Source of the DNA: an uncultured Gammaproteobacteria bacterium
GTDB taxonomy: Bacteria > Patescibacteriota > Microgenomatia > CAZETR01 > Amesbacteraceae
Assembly: GCA_964356225.1 (NCBI GenBank)
Contig: CAYHGA010000001.1
Span: 29,573-93,572 of the forward strand
Reading direction: 5' to 3'
DNA length: 64,000 nucleotides
Shown: one piece after another, positions 3,413 through 54,377 of the stretch
How positions within the stretch are numbered: the first letter of the stretch is position 1
Layout: every line of letters begins with the position of its first letter
Translations under genes and position numbers: made by a program
Notes under the pieces: model-generated
What the model was told of the DNA's origin: nothing
Databases searched by the model: none
The model's input: only the letters and a program-made list of their open reading frames with translations

Positions 3413-4420
3413 TCAGCGGGTCAGATATTTGTCAATATTCAAATTGTGTTCCTCTATTGTGGCAGCGAAATGAGTGGTGCCGTCGGGGGCGTGCAGGTAA
3501 AACCAATAAGGTGTGTTTTGGGGATGGCGGGCGGCTTCAATTGAAGCTAAGCCGGGGTTGGCGATGGGAGTAGGCGGCAGGCCGGTATGGATGTAAGTAT
3601 TATAAAGAGAGGGATAGCGGGTATCGGTGACGGGGGACCAGTCGCCATAAGCATATTGAACAGTGGCGTCTATTTGAAGAGGCCAACCAGCTTTGAGGCG
3701 TTTGAGAAGAATTCCGGCTACGATGGGACGATCGACGGCTGTTTTGGTCTCCCGTTCGACTAAGGAAGCCAAGATGAGAGTGCTGGTATCAATGGGGCCA
3801 ATTTTACGATTAAAGGTGGTGGTCATGGTGTTTACGATATCCGCAGGAGCGGCATAGGTAGGAATGAGGTAGGTATCAGGAAAAAGACGGCCTTCGAGGG
3901 TGGCGGTGAGAGATAAAAAATTGGCGGTCTCAAAATTTTCTAAGCTGGAAGCCAGGCGGGCGGCAATTTGTTCCCGGCGCCAGCCTTCAGGAAAAGTCAC
4001 CCAGATATCCCGGGGGCCGGATGTTAAAGAGGTGAGAAGATTTTTGAGATCGGTGGTGGGGGAAAGAAGGTAGGTGCCGGGTTTGATTTTTTTGTCCAAA
4101 CCGGAAAACACAAAATATATTTTGGCTACCTGGGGAGAGCGGATAAATTTTTGTTCAAATAGGGCTTGAGAGATGGCCGAAGCTGATTGATTGGAAGCAA
4201 TGATAAACGGGCGGGTTTGGTCAGAAGCGGGATTTAGAGGAGAAAGCTGGCGGGTCCACCAGACAAAGCCCAAAAGCGATGTTAAAGCGAGAAGGACGAA
4301 CAAACTGGCCAGGAGTTTCACCACCCTAGACCTCCTCGAACAAGGCCCGACGGTATTTGCCAGTTTCTGTTTCTTTGATAAAAATGCGGCCGCATTTTTT
4401 ACACACGATTTTGGTGCCAC
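3413..4420 (-). CDS. mltG: Endolytic murein transglycosylase MltG/YceG family
   Basis: YceG-like blocks are present: FPEGWR, LVERE, YNTY..GLPPTPI.NPG. The N-terminal TM is LLASLFVLLALTSLLGFVWW. The true start is probably an internal GTG near 4324, just after the upstream zinc-ribbon gene stop. Confidence 0.8.
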   Translation of the reverse strand: MAPKSCVKNAAAFLSKKQKLANTVGPCSRRSRVVKLLASLFVLLALTSLLGFVWWTRQLSPLNPASDQTRPFIIASNQSASAISQALFEQKFIRSPQVAKIYFVFSGLDKKIKPGTYLLSPTTDLKNLLTSLTSGPRDIWVTFPEGWRREQIAARLASSLENFETANFLSLTATLEGRLFPDTYLIPTYAAPADIVNTMTTTFNRKIGPIDTSTLILASLVERETKTAVDRPIVAGILLKRLKAGWPLQIDATVQYAYGDWSPVTDTRYPSLYNTYIHTGLPPTPIANPGLASIEAARHPQNTPYWFYLHAPDGTTHFAATIEEHNLNIDKYLTR

Positions 4421-7819: not shown

Positions 7820-9551
7820 AGATGCGGCGGACGCCAGCCGATACCGCTTCCTGGCGGGTTATCTTTATCCTACCAATTTCCCCCGTGGATTGCACATGAG
7901 GACCGCCGCACAGCTCTTTGGAAAAGTCGCCGATAGTGTAAACAGAAGTCATTTCCGGGTATTTTTCCGGGAAAAAGGCCATGGCGCCTTCGGCCAAAGC
8001 TTGAGATTTTTGCATTTCTTTTCTTGATACTGGAATATTGGCATCAATTTTTTCGTTTATTAAATCCTGAACTTTTTTAATTTCTTCTTCAGAAAGTTTT
8101 TGGGGATGCAAAAAATCAAACCGCAATCTCTCTGCTGTAATATTGCTGCCCTTTTGGGAAACGTGAGCTCCTAATACTTGACGTAGAGCTGCGTGCAGTA
8201 AATGAGTGGCGGTATGATATTTGGTAGCTATTTCAGAGTGATCTACTAATCCCCCCTTAAACATTCCCGCCGAAGCCGTACGTGAGAGTTCTTGGTGTTT
8301 ATTAAATTCTTTTTGAAATTCTGACCGATTAATTTCATTTCCTTTTTCTTTAGCTAATTCAGCTGTCAATTCCCAGGGGAAACCGAATGTTTGAAATAGA
8401 TCGAAAGCGATTTTGCCATCAACCAATTTTAATTTATTAAACTCTCTTAATCCGCGATCTAAAGTTTTTTCAAATTTACCAATTTCTTCTTGAAGGATAC
8501 GATGTATAAGAGATTTGTGGGTTAATAATTCTGGATAAAGCGGTGACATTAGGGAAACAAATACGTCGACGAGGTCGCTGGCGGCAGAAACATAAGATTT
8601 AATTCCCAATCTGTTTAATTGAAGTGTCGCCCGGCGAATGAGCCGCCGGAGAATATACCCCCGCTCTTTATTTGAGGGAGTTACGCTGTCACAAATTACA
8701 AATGCGGTGGCTCGGATATGATCAGCAATAATACGAAAAGATTTTTCATTTCTTAAATATTGCCGGTTTGAAAGTTGAGAAATTTTTTGAATTGCGGGCT
8801 GCCAAAGTTCGGTCAGATAGTCATCGTCTAGTCCGTTAACCACAGCTAGTGTTCGTTCCAATCCCATACCAGTGTCGACATTGGGTTGGGGAAGTTTTTC
8901 AAATTCACCCTTGGCATTTTTGTTGTATTGCATAAAGACATCGTTCCAAATTTCGGAAAAGCGGCCACAAGAACAGCCAGGTTTGCAACCTGGTCCGTGA
9001 GGTTTTTGGGTTATATCGTAATACATTTCAGTGTCTGGGCCACACGGGCCGGTAGCTCCAACTGGTCCCCACCAATTGTCTTTTTTAGGATAAAAGAAAA
9101 TTCTCTCATCGGGAATTCCCAGAGATTTCCAGATTTCGGCTGACTCGATATCTTTGGGCGCATCTTGATCCCCAGCAAAGCAGGTAATGTAAATTCTGTT
9201 GGGATCCAAATTTAACTCCTTGGTAAGAAACTCGTAGGACCAGGCAATGGCCTCTTTCTTGAAATAGTCTCCCAAAGACCAGTTACCCAACATCTCAAAA
9301 AAGGTGTGGTGAATTGTATCCCCTACCTCATCGATATCATCAGTGCGCAAACATTTTTGGACATCAACAAGTCGTTTTCCGGCTGGGTGGAGTTGGCCTA
9401 AAAGATATGGGACCAGAGGGTGCATGCCAGCGGTGGTAAAAAGAACCGAGGGATCGTTTTCGGGAACCAGGGGGGCGGAGGGAACTTCTACGTGTCCCCG
9501 GTCTTTAAAAAACTTCAGATATTTTTGCCTAATTTCGTTGGCTGTAATCAT
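7800..9551 (-). CDS. alaS: Alanine--tRNA ligase (short form: catalytic, tRNA-binding and editing domains, no C-Ala domain)
   Basis: AlaRS N-terminal blocks (EIRQKYLKFF..GH, LFTTAGM) and the editing-domain HxxxH (HTATHLLHAAL). 583 aa. Confidence 0.88.
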   Translation of the reverse strand: MITANEIRQKYLKFFKDRGHVEVPSAPLVPENDPSVLFTTAGMHPLVPYLLGQLHPAGKRLVDVQKCLRTDDIDEVGDTIHHTFFEMLGNWSLGDYFKKEAIAWSYEFLTKELNLDPNRIYITCFAGDQDAPKDIESAEIWKSLGIPDERIFFYPKKDNWWGPVGATGPCGPDTEMYYDITQKPHGPGCKPGCSCGRFSEIWNDVFMQYNKNAKGEFEKLPQPNVDTGMGLERTLAVVNGLDDDYLTELWQPAIQKISQLSNRQYLRNEKSFRIIADHIRATAFVICDSVTPSNKERGYILRRLIRRATLQLNRLGIKSYVSAASDLVDVFVSLMSPLYPELLTHKSLIHRILQEEIGKFEKTLDRGLREFNKLKLVDGKIAFDLFQTFGFPWELTAELAKEKGNEINRSEFQKEFNKHQELSRTASAGMFKGGLVDHSEIATKYHTATHLLHAALRQVLGAHVSQKGSNITAERLRFDFLHPQKLSEEEIKKVQDLINEKIDANIPVSRKEMQKSQALAEGAMAFFPEKYPEMTSVYTIGDFSKELCGGPHVQSTGEIGRIKITRQEAVSAGVRRIYATALS

Positions 9552-9634
9552 ACCCCTATTTTACATCAACGCTCCCAATAACTCCCTCTTACTCTCCGCA
9601 TAGCTTAATGAATAACTATGATTAGATTTACTAA

Positions 9635-10387
9635 TTAACTCAATACGTAATCCAGTTGACTTGCAATTACTTTATTGAAATCCTGCAAAAATTGGCTTAG
9701 AAAAACTTTGGATTCAACGAGAGGAAAGAGATCATTGTAGACAAATTGGGGATCTACTAAACCGACTTTGGTTTTCACCAAGTCCCGTATTTCCGAAAGA
9801 GTCTTTTTTTCTAAAAGGGACATCAATTGTTTGATATTTGGTTTGAGCGAATAGCCGGTTTTGGCAGAAAGCTGAAGTAACCAATATATGTCGAAAACAT
9901 CCCGTCCTTTAAACGGAATTTTTTGAAACTTACCCTTGAAAAAATTTCTATTTAAAAATGCAACTATCTTATTGGCGTAAAGAGTGGGCAGATCATAAGT
10001 ATTGACAAAAAATTGACGGTTATCAGCTGTAATTAAGCTTTTTTGTACATGATATTCTTTAGTAGTAATTTTTGAAAAATCACATCTCACAAAAATATTG
10101 TCAGGAAATTTTACAAACACGGTCGCATTATTACCGGATATCTTAGTTCCGGCTGATAGATATTTACCAAGATCTTTGGCAAACGTCTGAATATCAAATG
10201 ACGTGCTTGCCGGAATATCAAAATCCAAATCTTCAGACAAACGGTTTAAACCATACACTTTACGCAAACAGGTCCCACCGGTAAAGACTAACCTGTTATA
10301 AATCCCATCGTTATATACAAAATTTAGAATCTCGTCTTGCCAACGTTCCTTTATTAGATTCCTCTGATAAGTATTATCGTCGCTCAT
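9635..10387 (-). CDS. AbiEii/AbiGii-family nucleotidyltransferase (type IV TA toxin-like)
   Basis: LVFTGGTCLRKVYGLNRLSEDLDFD is the GGT..R.S.DLD signature of the DUF1814/AbiEii nucleotidyltransferase fold. It overlaps the upstream AbiEi-like gene by 14 nt. Confidence 0.7.
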   Translation of the reverse strand: MSDDNTYQRNLIKERWQDEILNFVYNDGIYNRLVFTGGTCLRKVYGLNRLSEDLDFDIPASTSFDIQTFAKDLGKYLSAGTKISGNNATVFVKFPDNIFVRCDFSKITTKEYHVQKSLITADNRQFFVNTYDLPTLYANKIVAFLNRNFFKGKFQKIPFKGRDVFDIYWLLQLSAKTGYSLKPNIKQLMSLLEKKTLSEIRDLVKTKVGLVDPQFVYNDLFPLVESKVFLSQFLQDFNKVIASQLDYVLS

Positions 10388-11057
10388 ATAAATATTGCAA
10401 TATTTTACTCATTTTTTTTGACTTGGATTTAGTCACAATCTCTTTAAATTCTTGCATGTCTGCGGCTGTAAAAACAGTCCAATTAAACCTTGAACCGAAT
10501 AAAAACTCCCGTGTTAACTGGTCAGTTATAAGCGGAGTCAGATATATAAAATCAAACATCGCCTTGGCTGGACTGGCAATTTTGTAAGAGAAATCTCCAT
10601 AGAATCTTTGTGTATACCCCCAAAACAAACCGGGTTTGATATTCCGGTATCTAAAACTCATAAGTTTGCTCTGAAACGTCCTGGTCTTCTTGGTGGTCAC
10701 ATTTGTGATGGTATATACACTTTCTGCTAATATTCCGTAAAGTGCCAATGCGTACTCTAAAGATATATAACTATCCCGCACTATTTCGCATCCAATATAT
10801 CTTGCCAATTCTTCTGGCGCGGATGATTTTTGATACAAAGTTTCGTTTAGATAAAATCCGGGTTTAATTGTATCCAACAAGCCTGCCTTTATGAGAGACC
10901 TAATGCGATAATCCAAAGTGCGGCGGTTGTTACCTAAAAGCACCTCTAGATTTTGCCTGGTAAAAAATGGGGCCGTGCTTTCTGAGATCAGTTTCTTGTA
11001 GTCTATTTCCATATGCACATAATTATATGTGCAACCGGAAACGGAGTCAAGTAGCAA
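10374..11057 (-). CDS. AbiEi-like antitoxin / transcriptional regulator
   Basis: N-terminal wHTH-like region (TRQNLEVLLGNNRRTLDYRIRSLIKAGLL) followed by a C-terminal domain. The probable true start is the ATG of MEIDYKK near 11012. Confidence 0.6.
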   Translation of the reverse strand: MLLDSVSGCTYNYVHMEIDYKKLISESTAPFFTRQNLEVLLGNNRRTLDYRIRSLIKAGLLDTIKPGFYLNETLYQKSSAPEELARYIGCEIVRDSYISLEYALALYGILAESVYTITNVTTKKTRTFQSKLMSFRYRNIKPGLFWGYTQRFYGDFSYKIASPAKAMFDFIYLTPLITDQLTREFLFGSRFNWTVFTAADMQEFKEIVTKSKSKKMSKILQYLYERR

Positions 11058-12421: not shown

Positions 12422-12667
12422 ATGAGCTCTACCAGACCATATTTTTTGTGGGATTATGATTTGACCGAGAATGACGTCAGGAGGATTCTGCGTGGGGAAA
12501 ATCAAACAGACAAGATTTGGATTATGTCGAGGATTCTGGAAAGCGCCAAGTTTGAAGATGTTTGGAAATATACAACCTTGTCTGATGTCAGATCGATGAT
12601 GCCGATATTAAAAATCAAAAAACCTATCCGTCAAGCCTGGGAACGGGCCTTAACAATATGGCAGTAA
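12422..12667 (+). CDS. Small protein resembling the C-terminal domain of the AbiEi-like antitoxin (truncated antitoxin?)
   Basis: YFLWDYDLTENDVRRIL...MSRILE aligns by eye with FLFGSRFNWTVFTAADMQEFKEI...MSKILQYL at the C-terminus of the 10374..11057 protein. A TATAAT sits directly upstream, and the ORF overlaps the following NTase gene by 10 nt. Confidence 0.4.
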   Translation: MSSTRPYFLWDYDLTENDVRRILRGENQTDKIWIMSRILESAKFEDVWKYTTLSDVRSMMPILKIKKPIRQAWERALTIWQ

Positions 12668-13320
12668 ATTACGTACTCCAAGACAAATTTTTGAATTTAT
12701 TTTTTTTCGGCCGTTTTGCAGCGGATTTTTATCTGACGGGCGGTACAGCTCTGGTACGATTTTATTTTCAGCACCGCGAAAGTGTAGATTTGGATTTGTT
12801 TAGCCAAAATCAACAGTTGGATTTTTCGGCTGTAAATTTAGAGGTTGAACGTATTGGCCGTGAGTTAAAACTAATAACTATCAAACAAGTGACCACGAAC
12901 ACTTTTTTGCAATTTATATTTGAAAGTACAGAGGGAGATACATTGAAGGTGGATGTAGTTAAGGATATTCCGGTACATTTTGGAGAGTTTAAACAAGAGG
13001 GTAAAGTGAGATTGGACTCATTGGAAAATATAGGTTCAAATAAAATCACAGCTATTTTTGGCCGGACTGATCACAAAGATTTTATTGATTTATATTACAT
13101 TTTAAATAAGACAGATTTTACATTCGAACATTTGGTTTCGCTGGCTAAGCAGAAAGATTTGGGGTTAACCGAATTTTATCTGGCCAATTCGATTGATCAA
13201 ATTGAGCAGACTTCACAAATGCCGGTCTTACTAAAACCACTTGATATAAAGAAATACAACGAATTTTACAAAAAACTTTCCCGGGATTTATTTTTAAAAA
13301 TCAAACCAGAAGATAAATAA
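12658..13320 (+). CDS. AbiEii-family nucleotidyltransferase, second copy
   Basis: FYLTGGTALVRFYFQHRESVDLDLF carries the same GGT..R.S.DLD signature. Confidence 0.7.
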   Translation: MAVNYVLQDKFLNLFFFGRFAADFYLTGGTALVRFYFQHRESVDLDLFSQNQQLDFSAVNLEVERIGRELKLITIKQVTTNTFLQFIFESTEGDTLKVDVVKDIPVHFGEFKQEGKVRLDSLENIGSNKITAIFGRTDHKDFIDLYYILNKTDFTFEHLVSLAKQKDLGLTEFYLANSIDQIEQTSQMPVLLKPLDIKKYNEFYKKLSRDLFLKIKPEDK

Positions 13321-13323
13321 TCT

Positions 13324-14019
13324 ATGGATCAACCTATTCCAACTATTTCTCCGGTCGCCCCATCTCCCAAAACCAACTGGCTATTATTTTTGTTGACAGG
13401 AGTTGTGATTTTATTGGTTGGTATCACTGCCGGGCTTGTGATCGGAAAGTATATTTATGCTCCCAAACCCACCCCAACGGCCGACCCCACCGCCAACTGG
13501 AAAACATATACCAGTAATAAATATGATTATCAATTCAAATATCCCCAAATTCCACCCGAGGCCTCCAGCGCATTTAAATTTTCACTTAACGACAAACTGT
13601 CTGAACTATGGGGACCAGACAATCTAATTTTTAGAATTGAAGTATTTGAAAATATCAACAATCCGCAACTTTGGTGGGAAAATCAAGCTATTGAACCATT
13701 TACTAAACTGGCGGTGAACAACTTTGACTTCACAGAGACAACGCTAAACAGCTATCCAGGATACTCTGCTCAGGTCAAAACAGAATTTCAAGAACCAAAA
13801 AAGGTGTTTAGAACGTATGTGCTTAGCAATAATGATAATGTGTATCTAATTCACTCAGATTATGGTCAGTGGAGTAACCAAATCCTCTCCACGTTTAAGT
13901 TTGTGGAGCAGGCAACGCCGAAGCCGACGTGCAAGCCCAGACCGGCTTGCTTAGATACTTCACCCCGCTGTCTGCTTCCGGAAACATCTGACATGTGTCC
14001 ACCAAATCAGAAGTTATAA
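13324..14019 (+). CDS. Membrane-anchored secreted protein, paralog B
   Basis: The N-terminus (MDQPIPTISPVAPSPKTNWLLFLL...DPTANWKTYT) and the C-terminal NQILSTFKF are near-identical in pattern to the 11100..12374 protein. It starts 4 nt after the NTase stop. Confidence 0.6.
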   Translation: MDQPIPTISPVAPSPKTNWLLFLLTGVVILLVGITAGLVIGKYIYAPKPTPTADPTANWKTYTSNKYDYQFKYPQIPPEASSAFKFSLNDKLSELWGPDNLIFRIEVFENINNPQLWWENQAIEPFTKLAVNNFDFTETTLNSYPGYSAQVKTEFQEPKKVFRTYVLSNNDNVYLIHSDYGQWSNQILSTFKFVEQATPKPTCKPRPACLDTSPRCLLPETSDMCPPNQKL

Positions 14020-14403
14020 CGAATGGGAGTGTGATTTAAGCCAGGATGAGATTTCTTTGACTCCTGGTTTGGAATTGTCGACATAAACCATAAAATCTGC
14101 GGCTTCTTTGCGGTTTGATTTGAGGTGATAACCATTATCCCAGAGAAATTTATGAGTTACGGTCCAAGCTGTGCGTTTGTTGCCGTCGGTAAACGGGTGA
14201 TTTAAGCAAACGGATTGCAGGAGGGCCGCGGCTTTGGCAAAAAGGGTGGGGTAAAGATCTTGACCAGCGTAGGTAGCTTTGGGCCGCTCGAGGGCAGAAT
14301 GGAGGAGAGCAAAATCGCGAACCGCTGCTTTGGTGCCAGCCCTGACAATGATTATTTCATGAATACGATAGGCCTCTTCTATATTAACGATCTGCCAGTT
14401 CAT
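14014..14403 (-). CDS. doc: Doc (death-on-curing) Fic-family toxin
   Basis: HPFTDGNKRTA matches the Doc variant of the Fic motif, HxFx(D/N)GNKR. Confidence 0.8.
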   Translation of the reverse strand: MNWQIVNIEEAYRIHEIIIVRAGTKAAVRDFALLHSALERPKATYAGQDLYPTLFAKAAALLQSVCLNHPFTDGNKRTAWTVTHKFLWDNGYHLKSNRKEAADFMVYVDNSKPGVKEISSWLKSHSHSL

Positions 14404-17604: not shown

Positions 17605-19249
17605 CTACGACCGGGAGAATCATGGGGCGGCGGCCGGTACGGTCGAAGAAGAAATGTTCCAAGACATCGGCGGCAACTTCACGCACTTGACGATCAGAAT
17701 CAATATGCCCTTGGCGCTTGGCCAGAGCAAGCTTTAAGGTTTGGCTGCCCTGGTTTAAGAGATTGGAATTTTCCTTACCAAAAACAAAACCGCGGCTGAT
17801 AAGATCTATGTTTTCGATTTGGGAGAGCTGGTTTTGTTTGGCTTGGATAACGGCGACCACTACGCCTTCTTCGGCTAAAACCTGACGATCACGTAAGACC
17901 ACGTGGCCAACATCACCGACTCCCAGGCCGTCAACCATGACGTTTTTAACGTCAACTACCGGGCCGGTTTTAACGGTTTCGGGGGTGACTTCAATAGTCT
18001 GGTTATATTCCGGCAAGAGAATTTGCGCTTCTTGGTAGCCCATGGATTGAGCAAGCCGGGAATATTGGACCATGTGGCGGTAAGTGCCGCCAATGGGGAT
18101 TAAATATTTGGGCCGGGTGAGAGCCATCATTAAAAGCAGATCCTGTTGGCTGCCGTGGCCGGAGACGTGCAAATTGTCGGTAATATTTGAGTAAACCACG
18201 GTGCCTCCCAATTTGGAGAGAGAGTCAATAAGGGACTGGGTGGCAGACTCGGTGCCGGGGATATAATCGGAGGAGAAAACTATTTTGTCTCCGGGTTTAA
18301 TAGTAGCGTCCTGATGTTCGCCCATGCCGAGGCGTTCCATAGCCGATCCGGTTTGGCCCTGGGAACCGGCTACTAACAAACACAAATTTTGCGGGGGCAT
18401 GCGGCGGGCTTGTTTGGGGTCGATAAGTACTCCTTTGGGAACTTTGATGTACCCTAAGTTTTGAGCCACGTTTAAATTGCGGCCAATGGAACGGCCAAGA
18501 ATAGCCACTCTGCGTCCGTGGCGGATGGCGGCGTCGATGGCCTGGCGAAAACGGCTGATGTTGCTACCCATAGTGGTAACGATAAATTTTCCGGGGCAAT
18601 TATTGATTTCCCGCTCAAACATCTCTTCCAGAGTTTTTTCGGAAGGCGTGTACCCCTTGCGCTCACTACCTAGACAATCGGAAAGAAGAAGGTGCACCCC
18701 GGAATTGCCGGCGGCGGCGATGCGGCCAACGTCGGGAAGGACGCCATCTACAGGGGAAAAATCGAACTTAAAGTCACTGCCGTGGTAGATGGTACCGACG
18801 GGGGTTTTAATAATTAAATTGGTGGCGTCGGGGATGGAATGAGATATGCGGGTAGACTCGACTGTAAATTTTCCTAAGGTCAGCGGTTGGCCGGGAATTA
18901 AGATGTTGACTTGTTTAGGAACCCCTTGATATTCGGCTAGTTTTTCCATGACCAGGTGAGCGGTGAGTTTACTGGCGTAAACCGAGACGCTTTTGAGTTG
19001 AGGGAGGATATAAGGGAGAGCGCCGGTATGGTCTTCGTGACCATGAGTAAGAACCAGGGCTTTGATGTGATTAATTTTGTTCTTGAGATATGAAATGTCG
19101 GGAATCAATAGATCCACCCCCAGCATGTCTTCGGTAGGAAAACCGATGCCGCAATCGACCAGTAAAATATCGTCTGCGTACTCATAGACGAACATGTTGG
19201 AAGTGACTTTGCCAAATCCCCCGAGGGAAATTATTTTTAAGCTATCCAT
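17594..19249 (-). CDS. rnj: Ribonuclease J (metallo-beta-lactamase / beta-CASP)
   Basis: HGHEDHTG metal-binding motif and a beta-CASP arrangement; 551 aa. Confidence 0.88.
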   Translation of the reverse strand: MDSLKIISLGGFGKVTSNMFVYEYADDILLVDCGIGFPTEDMLGVDLLIPDISYLKNKINHIKALVLTHGHEDHTGALPYILPQLKSVSVYASKLTAHLVMEKLAEYQGVPKQVNILIPGQPLTLGKFTVESTRISHSIPDATNLIIKTPVGTIYHGSDFKFDFSPVDGVLPDVGRIAAAGNSGVHLLLSDCLGSERKGYTPSEKTLEEMFEREINNCPGKFIVTTMGSNISRFRQAIDAAIRHGRRVAILGRSIGRNLNVAQNLGYIKVPKGVLIDPKQARRMPPQNLCLLVAGSQGQTGSAMERLGMGEHQDATIKPGDKIVFSSDYIPGTESATQSLIDSLSKLGGTVVYSNITDNLHVSGHGSQQDLLLMMALTRPKYLIPIGGTYRHMVQYSRLAQSMGYQEAQILLPEYNQTIEVTPETVKTGPVVDVKNVMVDGLGVGDVGHVVLRDRQVLAEEGVVVAVIQAKQNQLSQIENIDLISRGFVFGKENSNLLNQGSQTLKLALAKRQGHIDSDRQVREVAADVLEHFFFDRTGRRPMILPVVVEV

Positions 19250-19250
19250 A

Positions 19251-19937
19251 TCAAAACAAGCTAGGTTGACTGGGGGTATTATCCTCTATTTTTGGTTGAG
19301 GCGCCAGCAGGTTTTTTAACTTGGCAAAGTCTTCTTTAAATGCGTTCATCATGGCGGTGCCGCGTAAAGCCGCCGCCGGATGATACATGGGGAATATAAT
19401 TAGTTTATAGTTCATTGTTGATAGTTCGTAGAAACGCGCTTGGCCGTGGATTTGGGAAATAGTCGCGCCAGGGATAAATTTGGCCATACTGAAGCGACCT
19501 AAAGTGACAATAATTTTGGGAGAAATGATTTTTATCTGGCGGTCCAGCCAGTCGGCACAAGCGGCAATTTCGGAATCATTCGGGTCGCGATTATCCGGAG
19601 GCCTAAATTTGACAATATTAGTAATAAATACTTCTTCCGGTTTGATGCCGGTAGTTTCGAATAAAGTTTTGCGCATAAGTTGTCCGGATTGGCCTACAAA
19701 AGGCCGACCGGTTGCGTCTTCCACCTGGCCCGGAGCTTCGCCGATAAACATGATCTTTGCGTCGGGGTCACCTTCGCCTGGTACGGCATGGGTGGCATTT
19801 TTGGCAATATCCAAACCCTTAAAATTTCTAATTTCATCGGCAATTTTTTGCAGTTCTGTCTTTTTTTCATCTGTGGTCATATTTCTTTCCAAATTTTTTC
19901 TAATCTTTCTTTCACAGAAATATATGAGATAGGCCAA
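19251..19937 (-). CDS. Uracil-DNA glycosylase, family 4
   Basis: GEAPGQVEDATGRPFVGQSGQLM is the family-4 UDG motif. The true start is probably MTTDEKK at about 19880, directly after the upstream stop. Confidence 0.8.
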   Translation of the reverse strand: MAYLIYFCERKIRKNLERNMTTDEKKTELQKIADEIRNFKGLDIAKNATHAVPGEGDPDAKIMFIGEAPGQVEDATGRPFVGQSGQLMRKTLFETTGIKPEEVFITNIVKFRPPDNRDPNDSEIAACADWLDRQIKIISPKIIVTLGRFSMAKFIPGATISQIHGQARFYELSTMNYKLIIFPMYHPAAALRGTAMMNAFKEDFAKLKNLLAPQPKIEDNTPSQPSLF

Positions 19938-20299
19938 AGATAAAGCCAGCCGGAAAGGTGTTTGGCGCTGTTATTTATGTCCCAGGTTAATTTTTTTGAT
20001 TTGATGAATTTCATGCTCGCTTTGATGGCGATTAGCTCCTCGGCAACCCTAAACCCTGGATCAAAAAAATATTTTAAGGCGAATTTAAGAACACCGGCCT
20101 TTTTGATTCTTTTGATGTGGGTTTGTTCGTGAATTAGATGAGCGATATTTAACGAGTCGGGGCTAGTTTTTTGCAAATCTTTGTGTATGTTCTTTGGGAA
20201 ATAAATATTGGGGTACAGGGCCGTGGCAGTTTGATCAGATATCCATGGAATAAGATTCCAATATTTAGATTTTAATTTGACATTTGAATCGAGTTTCAT
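19877..20299 (-). CDS. Putative zinc metallopeptidase (HExxH protein)
   Basis: Single HEQTH motif in a 140-aa protein. No other family features are recognisable. Confidence 0.35.
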   Translation of the reverse strand: MKLDSNVKLKSKYWNLIPWISDQTATALYPNIYFPKNIHKDLQKTSPDSLNIAHLIHEQTHIKRIKKAGVLKFALKYFFDPGFRVAEELIAIKASMKFIKSKKLTWDINNSAKHLSGWLYLWPISYISVKERLEKIWKEI

Positions 20300-20330
20300 A
20301 TTAATTATAAAAAATAAAAAACTTAACCTT

Positions 20331-20750
20331 TCATGTTAATGGGTCAACAATTTTAATATCTCTCATAGGGAAATGCCTGGTATTGCAAGTAATGAGGGCT
20401 ATTTTTTTTATCCTGCAAGTCGCAGCGATCAAATAATCTATCAAATTACTATTAACACTTCGGTATCTATGCCAATATTCTCCCGCTAGTTTGGCTATCG
20501 TAAAATCTATGGGGATCTGATTATGCCACTTGAAAAAATGCCGGTTTGATGGTTCTTCTTCGGGAAAAGAATTTTTGTAAATTTCGCTAACGGTTAAAAC
20601 AGAAATAACTACGGACTGGTCATTCACTATTTTTGAAACGGCTTCAATTATCTTTTTATTTCCTCTGATTATCCAAATTGAAACATCTGAATCAAGCAAA
20701 AATCTACTTTTTGCTTTTGGTTTTGGCATAGGGAATATATGAGTAATCAC
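20331..20750 (-). CDS. vapC: PIN-domain toxin VapC
   Basis: LLDSDVSIWIIRG and the downstream acidic residues fit a PIN fold. The ORF overlaps the vapB stop. Confidence 0.7.
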   Translation of the reverse strand: MITHIFPMPKPKAKSRFLLDSDVSIWIIRGNKKIIEAVSKIVNDQSVVISVLTVSEIYKNSFPEEEPSNRHFFKWHNQIPIDFTIAKLAGEYWHRYRSVNSNLIDYLIAATCRIKKIALITCNTRHFPMRDIKIVDPLT

Positions 20751-21015
20751 GATTAGCCGCAGCCCGACCTTTGTTTACCCAATTTACAATATTTTCTATA
20801 TTTTCCCATCCGGGCCTACTTCTTATACCCAACACGCCGGTAAATTTTCTCAACGCGTCTGCGTAGGAAGTCTTTTTTCTTCCCAATTTCAACTGTTTGC
20901 TAACAGCCATGGCCACAAAACGACTTCTTTGTCTAGTGGATACCCGATCTTTTAAATCCAAATATAAATCCCAAGGTAATGTAAAATTTACTCTGGTCAT
21001 TGTTTGCATATACAC
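20704..21015 (-). CDS. vapB: Ribbon-helix-helix antitoxin VapB
   Basis: TRVNFTLPWDLYLDLKDRV...RSRFVAMAV reads as an RHH/CopG-like N-terminus. Confidence 0.6.
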   Translation of the reverse strand: MYMQTMTRVNFTLPWDLYLDLKDRVSTRQRSRFVAMAVSKQLKLGRKKTSYADALRKFTGVLGIRSRPGWENIENIVNWVNKGRAAANRDYSYIPYAKTKSKK

Positions 21016-21042
21016 ACTTTATATACCATCTCTACACACTTG

Positions 21043-22023
21043 TCAATAAGTGGGCAGGAATTGTTTGAGATTATCGGCTGTAATGTAAAATTCCTTGCCT
21101 TTGCCTTCAACTATGAGTTTGGCGGTTTTTCTAACGATACCCTGAATCGTGCGCTCCAGAGTTCTAATGCCGGCGTCAAAACCTAAGGGGCGGACGATTT
21201 GGGGCCAGACGGCATCGTCAATTTTGAGAGCTGTTTCAGGAAGAGACGCGTTTTTAATTTCGATAGGCAAGACATAATTGCGGGCGATTTTGATTTTTTC
21301 CTCGTCGTTGTAAGACGGCATGGTCAGAGGCTCGAGGCGATCCATAACGGCCGTGGAAATATTAGTGGTGTTGTTGCAGGTAGCAATGAATAAAACCTGG
21401 GAAAGATCGAACGGATAATCGATGTAATGATCGGTAAAACCAGCGTTTTGTTCAGGGTCGAGAAGCTCGACTAAAACTCCCATAATTTCGGATCTGGTGG
21501 ATTCGGCTACCCGGTCGATTTCATCAAGTAGAATGACCGGATTTTTGGCTCCGGCCCGGCGGATATTTTTGATGATCTGACCCGGCTCGGCGTCGGGATA
21601 AGTGCGGGATTGACCACGCAATTCTAGAGCTGAGCCCATGCCGCCAAAAGGAATACGCACAAATTTGCGGCCCATGGCCTCGGCAATTGATTTGGCGAGA
21701 GTTGTTTTGCCGGTACCGACCAAGCCGACTAATAATAAAATCGGGGCATGGTAGATGAGGCTTTTTTGCTGATTTAAAATGAGAACGGAGAGATATTCTA
21801 AAATGCGCTGTTTCAAATCTTCTAATCCGTAATGATGCTGGTCAAGAATTTGCTTAGCGTGACCTAAATCCAGGATATCTTTAGTGGTTTTGTCCCAAGG
21901 AAGAGAGGTGATCCAGTCTATGTAGTGAGTGGTTTGTTCGGGATTGGTACCACGAGTCAAGATTTCTTCGGCTCTGGCACGGAGATCATCGGGTAACGTG
22001 GCAGATTTTAATTTGTCATCCAT
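21043..22023 (-). CDS. Lon-like AAA+ ATPase with no peptidase domain
   Basis: Close match to the Lon AAA+ module (HYGLEDLKQRILEYLSV, Walker A GLVGTGKTTLAKSIA, LLDEID, sensor region). The protein ends at 326 aa with no Ser-Lys protease domain. Confidence 0.75.
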   Translation of the reverse strand: MDDKLKSATLPDDLRARAEEILTRGTNPEQTTHYIDWITSLPWDKTTKDILDLGHAKQILDQHHYGLEDLKQRILEYLSVLILNQQKSLIYHAPILLLVGLVGTGKTTLAKSIAEAMGRKFVRIPFGGMGSALELRGQSRTYPDAEPGQIIKNIRRAGAKNPVILLDEIDRVAESTRSEIMGVLVELLDPEQNAGFTDHYIDYPFDLSQVLFIATCNNTTNISTAVMDRLEPLTMPSYNDEEKIKIARNYVLPIEIKNASLPETALKIDDAVWPQIVRPLGFDAGIRTLERTIQGIVRKTAKLIVEGKGKEFYITADNLKQFLPTY

Positions 22024-22063
22024 TAGTTTAAGTATATCTCATGAGTGCCAATATTGTGGATCA

Positions 22064-22201
22064 ATACTTCGGAATGAGATGAGCTTGCCCGGGATCTTCG
22101 GCGAAGCCGTTTAGCTCTTCTATTATCTCTAAGCGTAGGCTCTTTTCCAGTTTACGAAAATTTTTTTCAAATTGGGGAGAATAGTAAAATTTCTTAATCA
22201 T
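22064..22201 (-). pseudogene. Truncated RelE/ParE-like toxin remnant (about 45 aa)
   Basis: Minus-strand ORF MIKKFYYSPQFEKNFRKLEKSLRLEIIEELNGFAEDPGQAHLIPKY* overlaps the Phd stop by 8 nt, as in a TA operon. It terminates before the conserved RelE C-terminal half. Confidence 0.4.
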
Positions 22202-22472
22202 CTAAAAACTCGGAAAAATCGGTGGTAGATTTGAGCTTGCCTGCTTTAAAATCCACTTCAGTCTGTTTAATACCCTGTAACAGCTTCTCGTCTTCCAGCT
22301 CTTGGATCCTGTCGAGAATTTTTTGCAGTTTTCCGACGTTTAGCATAGCCACTTCCGGCTTGTTATTACGCATTACAACCACTGGCTGGTTTCCAGATTT
22401 GGCCAGGTTTAAAATCCTGGCAGAATCCCGTTGCAAATCGGAAGCAGAAACAAGAGTAGGAAGTATGTTCAT
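22194..22472 (-). CDS. Phd/YefM-family antitoxin
   Basis: A 92-aa protein with the typical Phd/YefM N-terminus (SASDLQRDSARILNLAKSGNQPVVV). Confidence 0.7.
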   Translation of the reverse strand: MNILPTLVSASDLQRDSARILNLAKSGNQPVVVMRNNKPEVAMLNVGKLQKILDRIQELEDEKLLQGIKQTEVDFKAGKLKSTTDFSEFLDD

Positions 22473-22517
22473 ATATATATATTATCTTATGTATTAAACT
22501 ATGTCAAGAAGTATATA

Positions 22518-24656
22518 TCAAAAGCGGCGGCGGTCGTCACGACGTTGGGGAGCACGGAAAGGGCCGCGGTCGTCTCTGCGTGGACCGAAGTCCCGACGTG
22601 GAGCACGCTCTTCGCGGGCTTTGACCAGAGGTTGGCCGGCGGCATCAAAAAGCATAGAGAGATTGATACGATTTTGGGAGTCAATTTCAGTGACCCAGAC
22701 TCTAACTTTATCGCCTTCGTGAACGACAGTGTTGGGATCAGAGACAAAACCCTGGGCCATTTGAGAAACGTGGACCAGGCCGTCTTTGCCGGGGAGGATG
22801 TTTACGAACGCGCCAAAAGGCTGGATGCGGGCCACGGTGCCTTCATAGACTTCTCCGGGTTTGGCTTCTTGGCCTAAAGAGCCAATCCAGCCAATGGCGG
22901 AGCTGACTCCATCTTGATCGGTGCCGGAAACGAAAACTGAACCATTGTCGTTGACGTCGATAGTGACATTGAAGTCAGCCATGAGTTTTTTGATGACCTT
23001 GCCGCCCGGGCCAATGAGCTCGCCGATTTTGTCTACGGGAATGGTGACGACATGAATCTTGGGGGCATATGGGGATAATTCTTTTCTAGGTTCGGGAATG
23101 GCTTTGAGCATAGTAGAGAGGATAGCCATGCGGGCAACCCGGGTCCGTTTGAAAGTTTCTTCACAAATTTCCAGAGAAATCCCTGGGATTTTAACGTCCA
23201 GCTGGATAGCGGTAACGCCTTTTTCCGTGCCGGCCACTTTGAAATCCATATCTCCATAATGATCTTCGCCGCCATTGATATCAGTGAGAAGAACGTATTT
23301 ATCTGCCTCTTGTATCAAACCTGTGGAAATTCCGGAGACGGGGGCCAAAAGCGGAACACCGGCATCCATGAGAGATAAAGTGGATCCACAGGTGCTGGCC
23401 ATAGAGGTGGAGCCATTGGAACTCATAATTTCAGAGACAACCCGAATAGCGTAAGGGAAATCAGTTTCAGTGGGAATAACCGGGGCCAGGGCCCTTTCGG
23501 CTAAAGCTCCATGACCTATTTCCCGGCGGCCGGGTGAGCCCATGCGGCCAGTTTCTCCGGTGGAAAACGGAGGAAAATTGTAGTGGTGCATGTAACGCTT
23601 GGTTTCCTCGCCTTCGGCGGATTCTAGAGATTGAGACAAAGAGGGAGCTCCCAGGGTGGTGACGGTTAGGGCTTGAGTTTCTCCACGCTGAAAAATAGCG
23701 GAGCCATGGACCCGGGGCAAGACTCCGACTTCGGCTGAGAGGGGGCGGATTTCATCCAGTTTACGGCCGTCGGCCCGCTTGCCGGCCAGAATATTTTTGC
23801 GGAAAGTTTGGGAGAATAATTCTTCGACAATTTCTTTGACTTCAGCCTGATCTTTGGAGTCAAAACTGGAAACAAGGGGTTCTATTTCAGTTTCATCTTT
23901 TAAGTCTTTGGCAGCTTTTTGGACAGCGGAAAGCAGTTCCGGATTATGATCTTTAGAGGGGACGGGGATTTTGGCGTGCCCAACTTCTTTAACCAGATCG
24001 TTAATGAGGGCGATAATTTTTTTGTTCTCTGCAAACCCGATTTTTAGAGCTTCTAAAACTGTTTCCTCCGGAACTTGGTTGGCGCCGGCTTCGATCATGG
24101 GGATGACAGATTCTGAACTGGCGATAACCAAGTCCAGGTCCGCACCGAAGCGGTTTCCATTTTCTGGATTAATCACTAATTTGCCGTCGATTAGGCCCAT
24201 ACGAACTGCGGCTACGGGGCCGTTCCAGGGAATGGGAGAGATGGCTAAAACGGCGGAGGTGGCAATGAGACCTAAAACGTCAGCGTCGTTGGCAGTATCC
24301 ACAGAGAGAACGGTAATAACTACCTGGGCTTCATTTTTAAGGTTTTTTGGGAAAAGCGGGCGGATGGAGCGGTCGATAAGCCGAGCCGATAGAACTTCGG
24401 CGTCGGTAGGACGACCTTCACGTTTGACCCAACGGGAACCTTTGATGCGGCCCCCGGCATATAAACGTTCCTGGTATTCGACAGACAAAGGAAAATAATC
24501 TTTTTTAAGGTCTTCTTTACCGAGGACCACTGTGGCCAAAAGTGTAGTGTCGCCGTAACGGGCAAAAACGGCCGATGTAGCCCGGGCGGCAAAACGGCCG
24601 ACTTCCAGGGTAAGCGTGCGTCCGGCTAATTCTAAAGTTTTACTGACTAATTTCAT
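22518..24656 (-). CDS. pnp: Polyribonucleotide nucleotidyltransferase (PNPase)
   Basis: Two RNase PH domains plus KH and S1 domains, followed by an Arg-rich tail. Confidence 0.93.
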   Translation of the reverse strand: MKLVSKTLELAGRTLTLEVGRFAARATSAVFARYGDTTLLATVVLGKEDLKKDYFPLSVEYQERLYAGGRIKGSRWVKREGRPTDAEVLSARLIDRSIRPLFPKNLKNEAQVVITVLSVDTANDADVLGLIATSAVLAISPIPWNGPVAAVRMGLIDGKLVINPENGNRFGADLDLVIASSESVIPMIEAGANQVPEETVLEALKIGFAENKKIIALINDLVKEVGHAKIPVPSKDHNPELLSAVQKAAKDLKDETEIEPLVSSFDSKDQAEVKEIVEELFSQTFRKNILAGKRADGRKLDEIRPLSAEVGVLPRVHGSAIFQRGETQALTVTTLGAPSLSQSLESAEGEETKRYMHHYNFPPFSTGETGRMGSPGRREIGHGALAERALAPVIPTETDFPYAIRVVSEIMSSNGSTSMASTCGSTLSLMDAGVPLLAPVSGISTGLIQEADKYVLLTDINGGEDHYGDMDFKVAGTEKGVTAIQLDVKIPGISLEICEETFKRTRVARMAILSTMLKAIPEPRKELSPYAPKIHVVTIPVDKIGELIGPGGKVIKKLMADFNVTIDVNDNGSVFVSGTDQDGVSSAIGWIGSLGQEAKPGEVYEGTVARIQPFGAFVNILPGKDGLVHVSQMAQGFVSDPNTVVHEGDKVRVWVTEIDSQNRINLSMLFDAAGQPLVKAREERAPRRDFGPRRDDRGPFRAPQRRDDRRRF

Positions 24657-24681
24657 GTACTCTTATTCAATCAAGAAGTCT

Positions 24682-24706
24682 GAAGAAGAGGGTCACTTCT
24701 CTTCGC
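24682..24706 (-). promoter_or_regulatory. rpsO–pnp intergenic stem-loop (rpsO terminator / pnp leader)
   Basis: GAAGAAGAGGGTCACTTCTCTTC hairpin lies between the rpsO stop and the pnp start. By analogy to E. coli this could be the RNase III-processed or terminator hairpin. Confidence 0.4.
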
Positions 24707-24720
24707 ACCTCTCGATTGAT

Positions 24721-24990
24721 TTATTTTGTTAAACCTAACTTTTTAACCAGGTCATTATACCTTTTAATATCTTTCCTCTGCAAGTAGAACAATAACCGGC
24801 GGCGTTTGTTGACCATGGATAAGAGGCCGCGGCGGGAATGCTCGTCCTTTTTGTGGGCCTGCAAATGTTCGGTAAGTTTACTGATTTTTTCAGTCAGCAG
24901 GGCGGCCTGGACTTCGGGAGAACCGGTGTCCCCTTTGCCCTGGGCAAATTTCTTGATGACGTCTACTTTTGATTTGGGATCTAGTGCCAT
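24721..24990 (-). CDS. rpsO: 30S ribosomal protein S15
   Basis: 89-aa full-length S15. Confidence 0.93.
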
Positions 24991-25271
24991 ATTTGCGAAT
25001 TTCTAATTGACCTAATTTCCAAAAACTAAATAATAAGAGATAGGGCGAGTGCGAGTCCGATGAACTTCGGACAAACCTCCGTTAATGTCTCTTAGTGCCT
25101 GCAGTATACCATACTGTCTATTCTATTCGGAAGGGGGATTTTGGGATGGAACGTAACACACCCACGGGTTCTGATTATCGTTGGTTGAATACGAATTTGT
25201 TATAGTATTTGTTACTTGACTCACCAACAATAAAACTGTTTAATTAACTCAACCAAATAAAACCCAAATTT

Positions 25272-26135
25272 ATGCTTCAACCAAGAACATCAAACGTTGT
25301 AAATTCGCAGTGCCGTCATAAAAAATACGGAATTGAACAGTTTCTTAATGAGGTGATAGAAGGTGACTGTCTAGATGTGATGGTCGGTATTCCTGATAAA
25401 TCAGTAGACATGATTCTTTGTGATCTCCCATACGGTACAACCCAGAACCAGTGGGATAGTGTTATTCCGTTGGATGAACTATGGGAGCAATACGAAAGAA
25501 TAATAAAAGATAAGGGAGTAATTGTGTTAACATCGCAGGGAATATTTACTGCAAAGCTAATTTTAAGCAACGAAAAGCTCTTCCGATATAAAATCGTTTG
25601 GGAAAAATCGAAACCAACGAACTTCCTAAACGCAAAAAAGCAACCATTGAGAGCCCATGAAGATATATGTATCTTTTACAAGAATCATAAAAACCAACCA
25701 ACATACAATCCGCAGATGAGTAGTGGGACTCCCTATAACAAAGGGACTAGAAAAAATCAACATAGCGGTAGCTACGGGAACTTTGACCCAGTAGTGGTCA
25801 AGAGTGATGGACAAAGGTATCCTCTCGACGTTGTTTACTTCAAAACCGCCGAAAGTGAAGGTCGTATATATCACCCCACTCAAAAACCTGTGGAGTTGGC
25901 TCGCTATCTAATAAGAACATATACAAACGAAGGAGATACTGTCTTAGATAACACTTGCGGAAGTGGGAGTTTTCTTGTTGCTGCCGTGCTTGAAAAAAGG
26001 TCTTTTATAGGTGTAGAAAAAAATGAAGAGACAATATTGCATAAAGAAAAGAAAATAGATCTTATAGAAGTCTGCAACGCGCGAATAAAAGAAGCTCAAA
26101 ATTCTATGGAAAGTATGTTGCCTATATTCCTTTAA
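25272..26135 (+). CDS. Beta-class N6-adenine/N4-cytosine DNA methyltransferase (Type II modification)
   Basis: Motif IV (CDLPYG) precedes motif I (DNTCGSGS), and HPTQKP is present. Confidence 0.8.
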   Translation: MLQPRTSNVVNSQCRHKKYGIEQFLNEVIEGDCLDVMVGIPDKSVDMILCDLPYGTTQNQWDSVIPLDELWEQYERIIKDKGVIVLTSQGIFTAKLILSNEKLFRYKIVWEKSKPTNFLNAKKQPLRAHEDICIFYKNHKNQPTYNPQMSSGTPYNKGTRKNQHSGSYGNFDPVVVKSDGQRYPLDVVYFKTAESEGRIYHPTQKPVELARYLIRTYTNEGDTVLDNTCGSGSFLVAAVLEKRSFIGVEKNEETILHKEKKIDLIEVCNARIKEAQNSMESMLPIFL

Positions 26136-27042
26136 AATCTTCCCTCGGTAAAATTTTTTGAACCTTTTCTAAAACTGTGTCATCTACTTTATTTTTCTCC
26201 TTTAACCACACAAGAACGTGGCGATATTGATTAGGATGTAGAAATGGCTTAATAACTGTCTCTACTTCGAGCTCTTTCCTAACATATTTCAAATGCTCTT
26301 CTTTAAGTAAACCTCTACCGATTAAATCGTAAATTATTCTAACGGCGTCAACAGAAGTTAGATTAAGACCTCCTAATCGTTTTTCGTCCTGACCTACGTC
26401 TTCCTTCGTTAATTCAAATAACTCTTCCACGGCACTGATCCCGTTGAGGTTTTTATTATAAAACTCTATCTCCTGTCCTCTGTACGGAAACCATCCAGAA
26501 ATACCCCGTTCAGTCAAAGATCCACGAGGGAGGTAAACCCCTTCCCTTTTCGCTCTTCCTTTAGAAACCCAACCACATACATAAAGCTTCCATTTTCTCT
26601 GCCTCGACGTGCCAGGCAACGTTCCAGGCTTGGGCCTTTCTAGATGAGTCATCAAGTAAATATCAGTATCTAGTCGGTTGTCAAATACCTGTCTTGCAAA
26701 GAGGTTGTGTTTTGCTTCTCTAGGGATTCCATCGCTACTTGTGTATTTCTCCAAAAAGGGCTTTTCTCCACCTCTGCACTTAACGTCAATCTTTATACCG
26801 TTTGGTGTAAATATGTCATAAGCAAGAGATTGATTTTTATCTTTTTCAACTTTCAACCCTAACTCTTTTCTTATTACCATTTCCGTTAACAACCCATATC
26901 CTTGCTGGTCTTCAGAACCCCGTTCTGCCCCAGACATATTCTTATTTTTCTGAAGGTGTTTATAGGCCTCATTTCTTAATTCAAAACCGCTACTACCAGA
27001 AAGGTCGATTGCGAAAGGTGTAGGCCAACGGTATTTGTACAT
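26122..27042 (-). CDS. Putative Type II restriction endonuclease (PD-(D/E)xK)
   Basis: Convergent with the methyltransferase with a 14-nt overlap. Candidate catalytic core is YDIFTPNGIKIDVKCRGG (D..(I)D-V-K). Confidence 0.5.
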   Translation of the reverse strand: MYKYRWPTPFAIDLSGSSGFELRNEAYKHLQKNKNMSGAERGSEDQQGYGLLTEMVIRKELGLKVEKDKNQSLAYDIFTPNGIKIDVKCRGGEKPFLEKYTSSDGIPREAKHNLFARQVFDNRLDTDIYLMTHLERPKPGTLPGTSRQRKWKLYVCGWVSKGRAKREGVYLPRGSLTERGISGWFPYRGQEIEFYNKNLNGISAVEELFELTKEDVGQDEKRLGGLNLTSVDAVRIIYDLIGRGLLKEEHLKYVRKELEVETVIKPFLHPNQYRHVLVWLKEKNKVDDTVLEKVQKILPREDFKGI

Positions 27043-53932: not shown

Positions 53933-54033
53933 TATTTTCTAGTGCCCAAATACACTACTAAGGCGAGGATACCGACCAAGACAATGAGCGTCCAGGGGTT
54001 GTTAACAACTTTTACAAAGAGCTCTGGATTCAT
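53932..54033 (-). CDS. Small hydrophobic peptide (33 aa, single TM helix)
   Basis: Hand translation: MNPELFVKVVNNPWTLIVLVGILALVVYLGTRK*. The stop overlaps the downstream ATG by 1 nt. Confidence 0.35.
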   Translation of the reverse strand: MNPELFVKVVNNPWTLIVLVGILALVVYLGTRK

Positions 54034-54035
54034 GG

Positions 54036-54152
54036 TTACTTACGCTGGGATTTAGATTTGTTGGCCAAATAAAGGATCCATGCAGCAAAAAGGATAGAGG
54101 CAATTAGGCCACTAACAAAAGCAAAATTTATGCGAGTAGTTATGTCATTCAT
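54036..54152 (-). CDS. Small hydrophobic peptide (38 aa, single TM helix)
   Basis: Hand translation: MNDITTRINFAFVSGLIASILFAAWILYLANKSKSQRK*. The ATG overlaps the stop of the 70-aa ORF, and its own stop lies 2 nt from the next ATG. Confidence 0.35.
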   Translation of the reverse strand: MNDITTRINFAFVSGLIASILFAAWILYLANKSKSQRK

Positions 54153-54357
54153 TGTGTATACTCTGACTTAATTTTAACCCAATCTGGACAAATATCCAGC
54201 ACGAAATGGTGCCAACAACAAAGAGAGCTAGTCTGAGAGATGAAACAATATCCGAAACACTGATTGATCCGATGACTCCACTGATGAACCACGCTTTAGC
54301 AAGATCAAAACAAAGGTTAGAAAGAGACTTAAATTGAAATTGATTTAATTTATCCAT
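54145..54357 (-). CDS. Small membrane protein (70 aa)
   Basis: ORF-track ORF with a C-terminal TM helix (LALFVVGTISCWIFVQIGL). An extended -10 (TGGTATATT) sits about 8 nt upstream. Confidence 0.4.
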   Translation of the reverse strand: MDKLNQFQFKSLSNLCFDLAKAWFISGVIGSISVSDIVSSLRLALFVVGTISCWIFVQIGLKLSQSIHNE

Positions 54358-54377
54358 TAGAGTTTAATATACCATAA

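Follow-up and report, generated by a model that had tools for sequence, protein, structure and literature searches.

Does a Lon-type ATPase that lacks a protease, encoded among toxin-antitoxin (TA) genes and next to a putative metallopeptidase, work together with these neighbours, or does it merely share their address? The question is raised by a 64-kb stretch of contig CAYHGA010000001.1 from an Amesbacteraceae genome, the whole of which we call the window. In it, six open reading frames (ORFs), all on the minus strand, lie between pnp and a uracil-DNA glycosylase (UDG) gene. The initial annotation had described five co-directional genes in an AT-rich mini-island and had proposed that the Lon ATPase might work in combination with the TA genes and the metallopeptidase around it. 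Its coordinates, gene calls and single strand stand, but the count is six. We hold with good confidence that the interval is a mosaic and not a system: a resident core gene for the ATPase, here called LonAAA, with unrelated accessory genes at the junctions on either side of it.

A core ATPase gene in a conserved array

LonAAA is a vertically inherited core gene of Microgenomates and never carries a protease domain. Scanning one genome per GTDB species gave 80 LonAAA loci from Amesbacteria, Woesebacteria, Levybacteria, Gottesmanbacteria, Roizmanbacteria, Shapirobacteria and Cerribacteria, each extending up to 8 kb either side of the gene; identifiers such as L001 and L002 label individual relatives. 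Among the 72 loci that reach far enough upstream, pnp, scored by tblastn on the same strand, precedes LonAAA in 67 and adjoins it in 51. Downstream, 74 of 77 loci have UDG or RNase J, in 58 of them directly next to LonAAA. Around three homologues on long contigs the array reads nusA-infB-x-rpsO-pnp-[LonAAA]-(UDG)-RNase J-FtsK. The closest TA-free relative, L001 (88% identity), has rpsO-pnp-LonAAA-UDG-RNase J-FtsK with gaps of 18 nucleotides (nt) between pnp and LonAAA and 42 nt between LonAAA and UDG, and no inserts. L003-L005 keep the same order apart from an inserted metallophosphoesterase gene, and P0175, a 44%-identical short form from a more distant lineage, lies between pnp and FtsK.

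The protein is under strong constraint. Across 86 distinct LonAAA sequences, Walker A (GxxGxGK[TS]), Walker B (DE), sensor-1 Asn217, Arg229 and sensor-2 Arg287 are invariant, with single outliers in Walker A. The ratio of nonsynonymous to synonymous substitution rates (dN/dS) is 0.02-0.04 against four close relatives, an approximate figure because dS is near saturation in these comparisons. Of five array genes compared in 47 loci, LonAAA shows the highest conservation in 34, with a median identity of 59.6% against 57.5% for S15, 55.1% for FtsK, 53.7% for PNPase and 44.4% for RNase J, a ranking biased in its favour since the loci were chosen by LonAAA similarity.

Such a setting could mean that the ATPase is a partner of the RNA-decay and ribosome machinery (PNPase, RNase J, S15), a ribonucleoprotein- or degradosome-like remodeller co-transcribed with pnp. 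LonAAA does adjoin pnp and UDG or RNase J in most loci, the gaps are often below 100 nt, and it is as conserved as rpsO. However, array order is kept for functionally unrelated genes too, UDG and FtsK among them; 16 loci, and the window too, accommodate insertions with promoters of their own between pnp and LonAAA; and the acidic D-A-E residues of pore loop 1, described below, do not suggest nucleic-acid threading. We regard this partnership as unlikely.

Base composition sets the ATPase apart from the genes around it. At a GC content of 0.464 it matches the window mean (0.47), so the description of the interval as an AT-rich island is right for the accessory genes (0.34-0.42) and wrong for the ATPase. 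The individual values are 0.42 for Phd, 0.37 for the toxin stub, 0.39 for the VapB-like gene, 0.34 for the PIN gene and 0.36 for the HExxH gene. Because only the accessory genes are AT-rich and the ATPase is native in composition, the interval resolves into two AT-rich insertions flanking a native gene. In order of transcription the features are:

22518-24656, minus strand: pnp (PNPase), the upstream neighbour of the ATPase
22479-22507, minus strand: promoter-like site TTGACA-17-TAATAT, 10 of 12 consensus matches, between the pnp stop and the Phd start
22194-22472, minus strand: Phd/YefM-family antitoxin, 92 amino acids (aa), intact (PF02604)
22023-22201, minus strand: YafQ/RelE-type toxin pseudogene, consisting of a 46-aa stub (22061-22201) and an out-of-frame C-terminal remnant
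21043-22023, minus strand: stand-alone Lon-type AAA+ ATPase, 326 aa (Pfam AAA and Lon_lid)
20704-21015, minus strand: 103-aa ORF, presumed VapB-like antitoxin, overlapping the PIN ORF
20331-20750, minus strand: PIN-domain (VapC-type) toxin, about 132-139 aa (PF01850)
19877-20299, minus strand: HExxH...EE protein (HEQTH), 140 aa, candidate minimal zincin-like metallopeptidase
19251-19880, minus strand: family-4 UDG (Pfam UDG, 1.9e-37; TIGR00758, 189.8 bits against a cutoff of 125.3)

The six ORFs between pnp and UDG are tightly packed. They are not chance reading frames, since every one has homologues and dN/dS values run from 0.02 to 0.17. The promoter-like site at 22507-22479 is the top score in a consensus scan of 19000-25300 and is a consensus match only.

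Variable cargo at the two junctions

The pnp/LonAAA and LonAAA/UDG junctions hold small AT-rich accessory genes that vary between related genomes. Only 7 of the 80 species loci contain homologues of any accessory gene of the window: Phd with its toxin in L006 (Amesbacteria GW2011_GWA1_47_20), L007, L008 and L010, the VapB-like/PIN pair in L011, and weak single matches in L025 and L032. The HExxH gene is in none of the 80 within 8 kb either side. After the ATPase, close relatives have other genes: MNT/HepT and a HIT protein in L006; def, a gene for a membrane protein and an ORF of 218 aa in L007; a metallophosphoesterase-like ORF, def and two further ORFs in L010; and, beside the VapB-like/PIN pair of L011, an ORF resembling the L003 metallophosphoesterase. 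Except for the HIT protein, these assignments were made by inspection or by likeness to genes annotated in other loci. The cargo of L086 comprises SNase, MNT/HepT, VapB-like/PIN, a glyoxalase-family protein, HExxH and LAGLIDADG. Comparison lends no support to the functional combination that had been proposed: the ATPase is a core gene, the others are variable cargo, and L001 does without the inserts altogether.

The upstream insert consists of an intact antitoxin and a broken toxin. Phd matches PF02604 (E = 3.5e-8; 33.5 bits against a gathering cutoff of 29.8) and falls below the cutoff of TIGR01552 (17.4 against 20.8). It has orthologues in L006, L007, L008, L010 and L088, with a dN/dS of 0.02 against L006. 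In all five of these genomes an intact toxin of 89-90 aa follows Phd, and the 90-aa protein of L006 matches Pfam YafQ_toxin, which has the RelE fold (1e-7; 32.5 bits against a cutoff of 30). The 46-aa stub of the window matches no family. DNA alignment to L006 reveals one 94-nt internal deletion that shifts the frame, and the out-of-frame C-terminal remnant, LIHNIGTHEIYLN, runs to 22023. The toxin beside Phd is thus decayed, as first annotated: the alignment shows a YafQ/RelE-type gene inactivated by deletion, leaving an orphaned antitoxin that still looks to be under selection. In the window and in L006 the stop codon of the toxin gene runs into the ATG of LonAAA. ORF coordinates put the same one-base overlap between the two genes in L007 and L008; in L010 a gap of 57 nt separates the toxin ORF from the point where the tblastn match to LonAAA begins.

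The downstream insert appears to hold an intact TA pair. The PIN protein exceeds the PF01850 cutoff (5.7e-10; 40.3 bits against 23.6) and lies below the cutoff of the NCBIfam VapC equivalogs (32.9 against 140). The 103-aa ORF overlaps the PIN gene, co-occurs with PIN in L002 and L011 and has a dN/dS of 0.07; in L086 and L087 an ORF of 91-101 aa stands in the corresponding place upstream of PIN. It has no match in Pfam, NCBIfam, PADLOC, PHROGs or PDB sequences, and we presume that it encodes the antitoxin of the PIN toxin. Both pairs resemble known type II TA systems (Phd/YefM with a YafQ/RelE-fold toxin, and VapBC) in their antitoxin-then-toxin order and overlapping frames. They differ from them in that the partner toxin of the window's Phd is destroyed by the 94-nt deletion and the putative VapB matches no known antitoxin family. 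TA pairs of this kind would have the usual type II role in addiction or stress. In the window, the upstream junction contains a Phd gene with its own promoter-like site and a dead toxin gene, and the downstream junction an apparently intact VapB-like/PIN pair and the HExxH gene.

The HExxH protein belongs to a family of its own. It is 140 aa long, as initially annotated, contains HEQTH and matches no non-peptidase family; its stop codon overlaps the UDG start in the sequence ATGA. A single-sequence search returned 11 homologues, several of them at the LonAAA/UDG junction, and a profile search extended the family to at least 356 proteins from Woesebacteria and other Patescibacteria, nearly all about 140 aa long and none with a Pfam domain. 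In 105 sequences H57, E58, H61, E87 and E88 are invariant, giving by sequence the HExxH motif and a third metal ligand. We compared the family with minimal zincin-like metallopeptidases, namely MPTase-PolyVal (the C-terminal domain of ArdC), Peptidase_M56/BlaR1 and M48. MPTase-PolyVal (PF18818) matches 47 of the 105 members weakly (best E = 1.6e-4) and Peptidase_M56 matches 25, in both cases below the cutoff. The motif supports a predicted metal-dependent hydrolase, possibly a minimal zincin, and this small enzyme would work apart from the ATPase. The family is unnamed, has no Pfam entry and is a candidate for a new family definition.

These genes could be seen as a two-component protease that controls TA modules, in which the ATPase unfolds Phd and VapB and passes them to the HExxH metallopeptidase in place of S16. 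E. coli Lon degrades antitoxins. In its favour, the genes are closely spaced and point the same way, the family keeps HExxH and EE without exception, and TA and HExxH genes share the same junctions in several close relatives. Against such a device, the HExxH gene is missing from all 80 species loci and most LonAAA genes have no TA neighbour. Three distant HExxH members lie among small unrelated genes (acetyltransferases, NUDIX, MazG, HAD, methyltransferases) with neither LonAAA nor TA genes nearby. The accessory genes also differ from the ATPase in GC content, the zincin assignment is weak, and the pore loops that would thread a substrate are degenerate in the LonAAA family. We consider a two-component protease very improbable.

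Several observations nonetheless weigh against a pure mosaic. The HExxH gene is a repeated occupant of the LonAAA/UDG junction, carried there by at least four types of related contig (L086/L087, L088/L090, L091 and the window). Several TA families (Phd-YafQ, VapBC, MNT-HepT and HTH-PIN_3) recur beside the ATPase in the Amesbacteria-like clade, and Phd-YafQ abuts the ATPase start in five genomes with LonAAA identities of 74-97%. Nor is the arrival of the inserts accounted for by an integrase, an IS element or flanking repeats: the six ORFs include no integrase, transposase, IS element or other recombinase that would mark a mobile island, and a repeat search at the insert boundaries turned up short AT-rich chance matches but no direct or inverted repeat of significance. 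Because of the recurring TA families and the Phd-YafQ genes abutting the ATPase, we leave a slight chance to a clade-specific functional link between LonAAA and TA genes in Amesbacteria-like genomes. The mosaic remains our preferred reading.

Known defence systems and phages were also considered as sources of the interval and set aside. PADLOC returned generic AAA matches only (P-loop stretches of the DolB, IetA and TRIP13-like type) and was blank for the other four proteins, and PHROGs had no match for the VapB-like and HExxH proteins.

The LonAAA/UDG junction of relatives holds a further gene. In L086 (5420-6352), L088 (5308-6243) and L002 (10146-11081) the gene immediately before UDG, overlapping its start, encodes a 310-aa LAGLIDADG_3 protein (1.2e-7). 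Its ORF also overlaps the preceding HExxH gene in L086 and L088 and follows the PIN gene in L002, where no HExxH homologue was detected. The protein may be a free-standing homing endonuclease that adds to the turnover of the junction. In L006, UDG itself is split into two overlapping ORFs (3810-4383), by a frameshift or an assembly error.

Other parts of the window show similar patches. The same array is interrupted again at 25272-27042, between rpsO and a conserved 252-aa gene next to infB, by a further AT-rich insertion (GC 0.38-0.39). Two ORFs converge in it, one for an N6/N4 DNA methylase (PF01555, 3.7e-30) and one of 306 aa without a match in Pfam or PHROGs; they may form a restriction-modification pair. 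On the minus strand at 14014-14403, near a conserved RodZ-like HTH_25 gene, a 129-aa ORF of the Fic/DOC family (PF02661, 9.2e-18) may be one more accessory gene resembling a toxin. GC also falls below 0.38 at 8000-8600, 9600-10800, 12600-13400 and 54000-54400, patches that may be additional accessory insertions.

A Lon-type ATPase without a protease domain

LonAAA corresponds to the AAA+ module of LonA and stops before the peptidase, as the initial annotation had proposed. Residues 5-323 align with the AAA+ part of B. subtilis Lon (PDB 3m6a, E = 4.5e-80), and the C-terminus of the protein falls on the linker between the AAA and protease domains. Pfam recognizes AAA (8e-21) and the Lon-specific lid (Lon_lid, PF22667; 8.8e-10). 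The full-length models are matched in part: the protein covers positions 274-570 of the 795 in TIGR00763 (322.2 bits against a cutoff of 608), a match that begins past the LAN domain, and scores 258.7 bits against NF008053, whose cutoff is 891. The N-terminal part is presumably the helical bundle that precedes the AAA+ module in LonA.

No trace of the rest of a lon gene was found. We built S16 and LAN hidden Markov models (HMMs) from 61 full-length Lons returned by an exhaustive search and ran them against six-frame translations of the window and 91 related loci (1.29 Mb in all); neither matched. As a control, the S16 HMM matched 10 of 19 Lon-like proteins of 600-760 aa. The S16 serine motif G[PD]S[AG]G is present in no ORF of the window, and the next ORF begins 28 nt downstream of the ATPase. 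Apart from the missing protease domain itself, nothing suggests that a complete lon gene was broken by frameshift or truncation in this genome to leave the 326-aa ORF. The architecture is the same in every locus with a complete ORF: LonAAA measures 310-467 aa (median 354) in 89 of 90 loci, the remaining one (L089) being a 94-aa ORF at a contig end. Databases give the same picture: the 120 top homologues, which come from Amesbacteria and other Patescibacteria and share 65-100% identity, are all 295-368 aa long and have AAA and Lon_lid, none with Lon_C. LonAAA ORFs all terminate at ...N[IVL]K.[FY][LI]P.., and many members keep an FLP.[YW] tail. With a dN/dS of 0.02-0.04 besides, decay from a full-length gene is hardly credible.

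The family stands apart from canonical LonA by similarity as well. In an exhaustive search of representatives, LonAAA members scored at least 350 bits at 56% identity or more, and canonical LonA proteins (770-840 aa) at most 280 bits at 42-47%. No full-length Lon was seen, although whole genomes were not scanned, and calling the ATPase a Lon paralog, as had been done, is not shown to be justified. Databases name LonAAA proteins inconsistently: NCBI uses 'AAA family ATPase', IMG/JGI 'ATP-dependent Lon protease' (about 347 aa) and UniRef, for one of them, 'Lon protease'. The 'Lon protease' names are over-annotation.

The top scorers of the exhaustive search were of a different kind. They are proteins of 1000-1700 aa with two to four tandem Lon-type AAA+ stretches (P0132-P0137 and similar), an unusual arrangement. 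P0132 has 1113 aa and is named 'AAA family ATPase [Candidatus Dependentiae bacterium]'; a look-up of cluster names for the nearest relatives gave one Dependentiae and one Clostridiales name and was otherwise mostly uninformative.

Set against LonA (TIGR00763, MEROPS S16; 3m6a and the Meiothermus taiwanensis enzyme), LonAAA shares the AAA+ module and the helical segment before it at about 42-47% identity, together with the Lon lid, Walker A and B, sensor 1, the Arg finger and sensor 2. It lacks the N-terminal LAN substrate-binding domain and the S16 Ser-Lys protease domain. Loss of one of the two Lon activities has precedents: two reports describe LonC of Meiothermus taiwanensis, which has no ATPase activity, and stand-alone Lon protease-domain proteins (PMC3391209, PMC13069640). 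LonC is a mirror image of LonAAA, having kept the protease and lost ATPase activity, whereas LonAAA keeps all ATPase residues and has no protease. We found no description of a protease-less Lon, or of Lon in the candidate phyla radiation (Patescibacteria), in the open-access literature.

Pore loops and the probable activity of the ATPase

The pore loops of LonAAA depart from those of LonA. In M. taiwanensis LonA, Tyr397 of pore loop 1 and Trp431 of pore loop 2 touch the substrate and are needed for degradation (PMC8503904). LonA reads RGHRRTY[IV]GAMPG in pore loop 1, whereas LonAAA reads RGQSRxxPDAEPG, with near-invariant acidic residues (D-A-E) and a variable aromatic position: among the 86 sequences it is F in 35, H in 26, Y in 12, L in 6, R in 4 and M in 2. 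At the pore-loop-2 position, where LonA has Trp or Phe, LonAAA has Ala (66), Gly (12) or Thr (3). The window ATPase keeps a tyrosine (Tyr142) in pore loop 1 and has Thr176 in pore loop 2. Judged by these residues, most members of the family appear to lack canonical substrate-gripping pore loops.

A split Lon would reconcile an intact ATPase with a missing protease: S16 would be encoded elsewhere and dock in trans on the ATPase ring, as ClpP does on ClpX and HslV on HslU. The ATPase ends exactly at the AAA/protease linker, many members share the FLP.[YW] tail, purifying selection is strong and the ATPase motifs are intact. ClpX and HslU offer an analogy in that a stand-alone AAA+ chain could in principle dock on a separate peptidase. 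They belong to another AAA+ clade, however, and no partner peptidase was found near LonAAA: neither the window nor the 8 kb either side of the ATPase in the 91 loci contains an S16-like ORF. The pore-loop aromatics required for degradation in M. taiwanensis LonA are unconserved in LonAAA, and a review of Lon classification states that every known Lon is a single chain and that all Lons have both ATPase and protease domains (PMC9569914). A Lon split in this way strikes us as quite unlikely.

The residues that are kept and those that are lost point to a non-proteolytic machine. Because the catalytic residues are all invariant, LonAAA would form a Lon-like hexamer that hydrolyses ATP; we infer an ATP-hydrolysing ring that is probably not a conventional processive protein translocase. 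The absence of a protease chamber and of an N domain, together with the loss of the canonical pore-loop aromatics in most members, suggests that it would most likely serve as a non-proteolytic remodelling or chaperone ATPase. Alternatively, it might feed a partner encoded elsewhere.

At its broadest, the comparison invites a tentative evolutionary proposal. LonA may have been replaced, in Microgenomates and in one or more remoter lineages of Patescibacteria, by a ring without protease or N domain, with rewired acidic pore loops and a conservation on a par with that of ribosomal proteins. Such a ring would add a fourth functional type to the Lon lineage, either a non-proteolytic unfoldase or remodeller or the ATPase half of a two-component protease; we put it forward as possible, not as probable.

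The suggestive neighbourhood of Lon ATPase, TA genes and metallopeptidase reads as a by-product of two variable-cargo junctions and warns against over-reading adjacency in small, gene-dense genomes. LonAAA itself presents a natural experiment for AAA+ mechanism: a Lon ring held under strong selection with no degradation chamber and no canonical pore-loop aromatics. Should a protease-less Lon be the only one in Microgenomates, any reconstruction listing an 'ATP-dependent Lon protease' overstates their proteolytic repertoire, and how these organisms turn over misfolded proteins and antitoxins would become a question in its own right.

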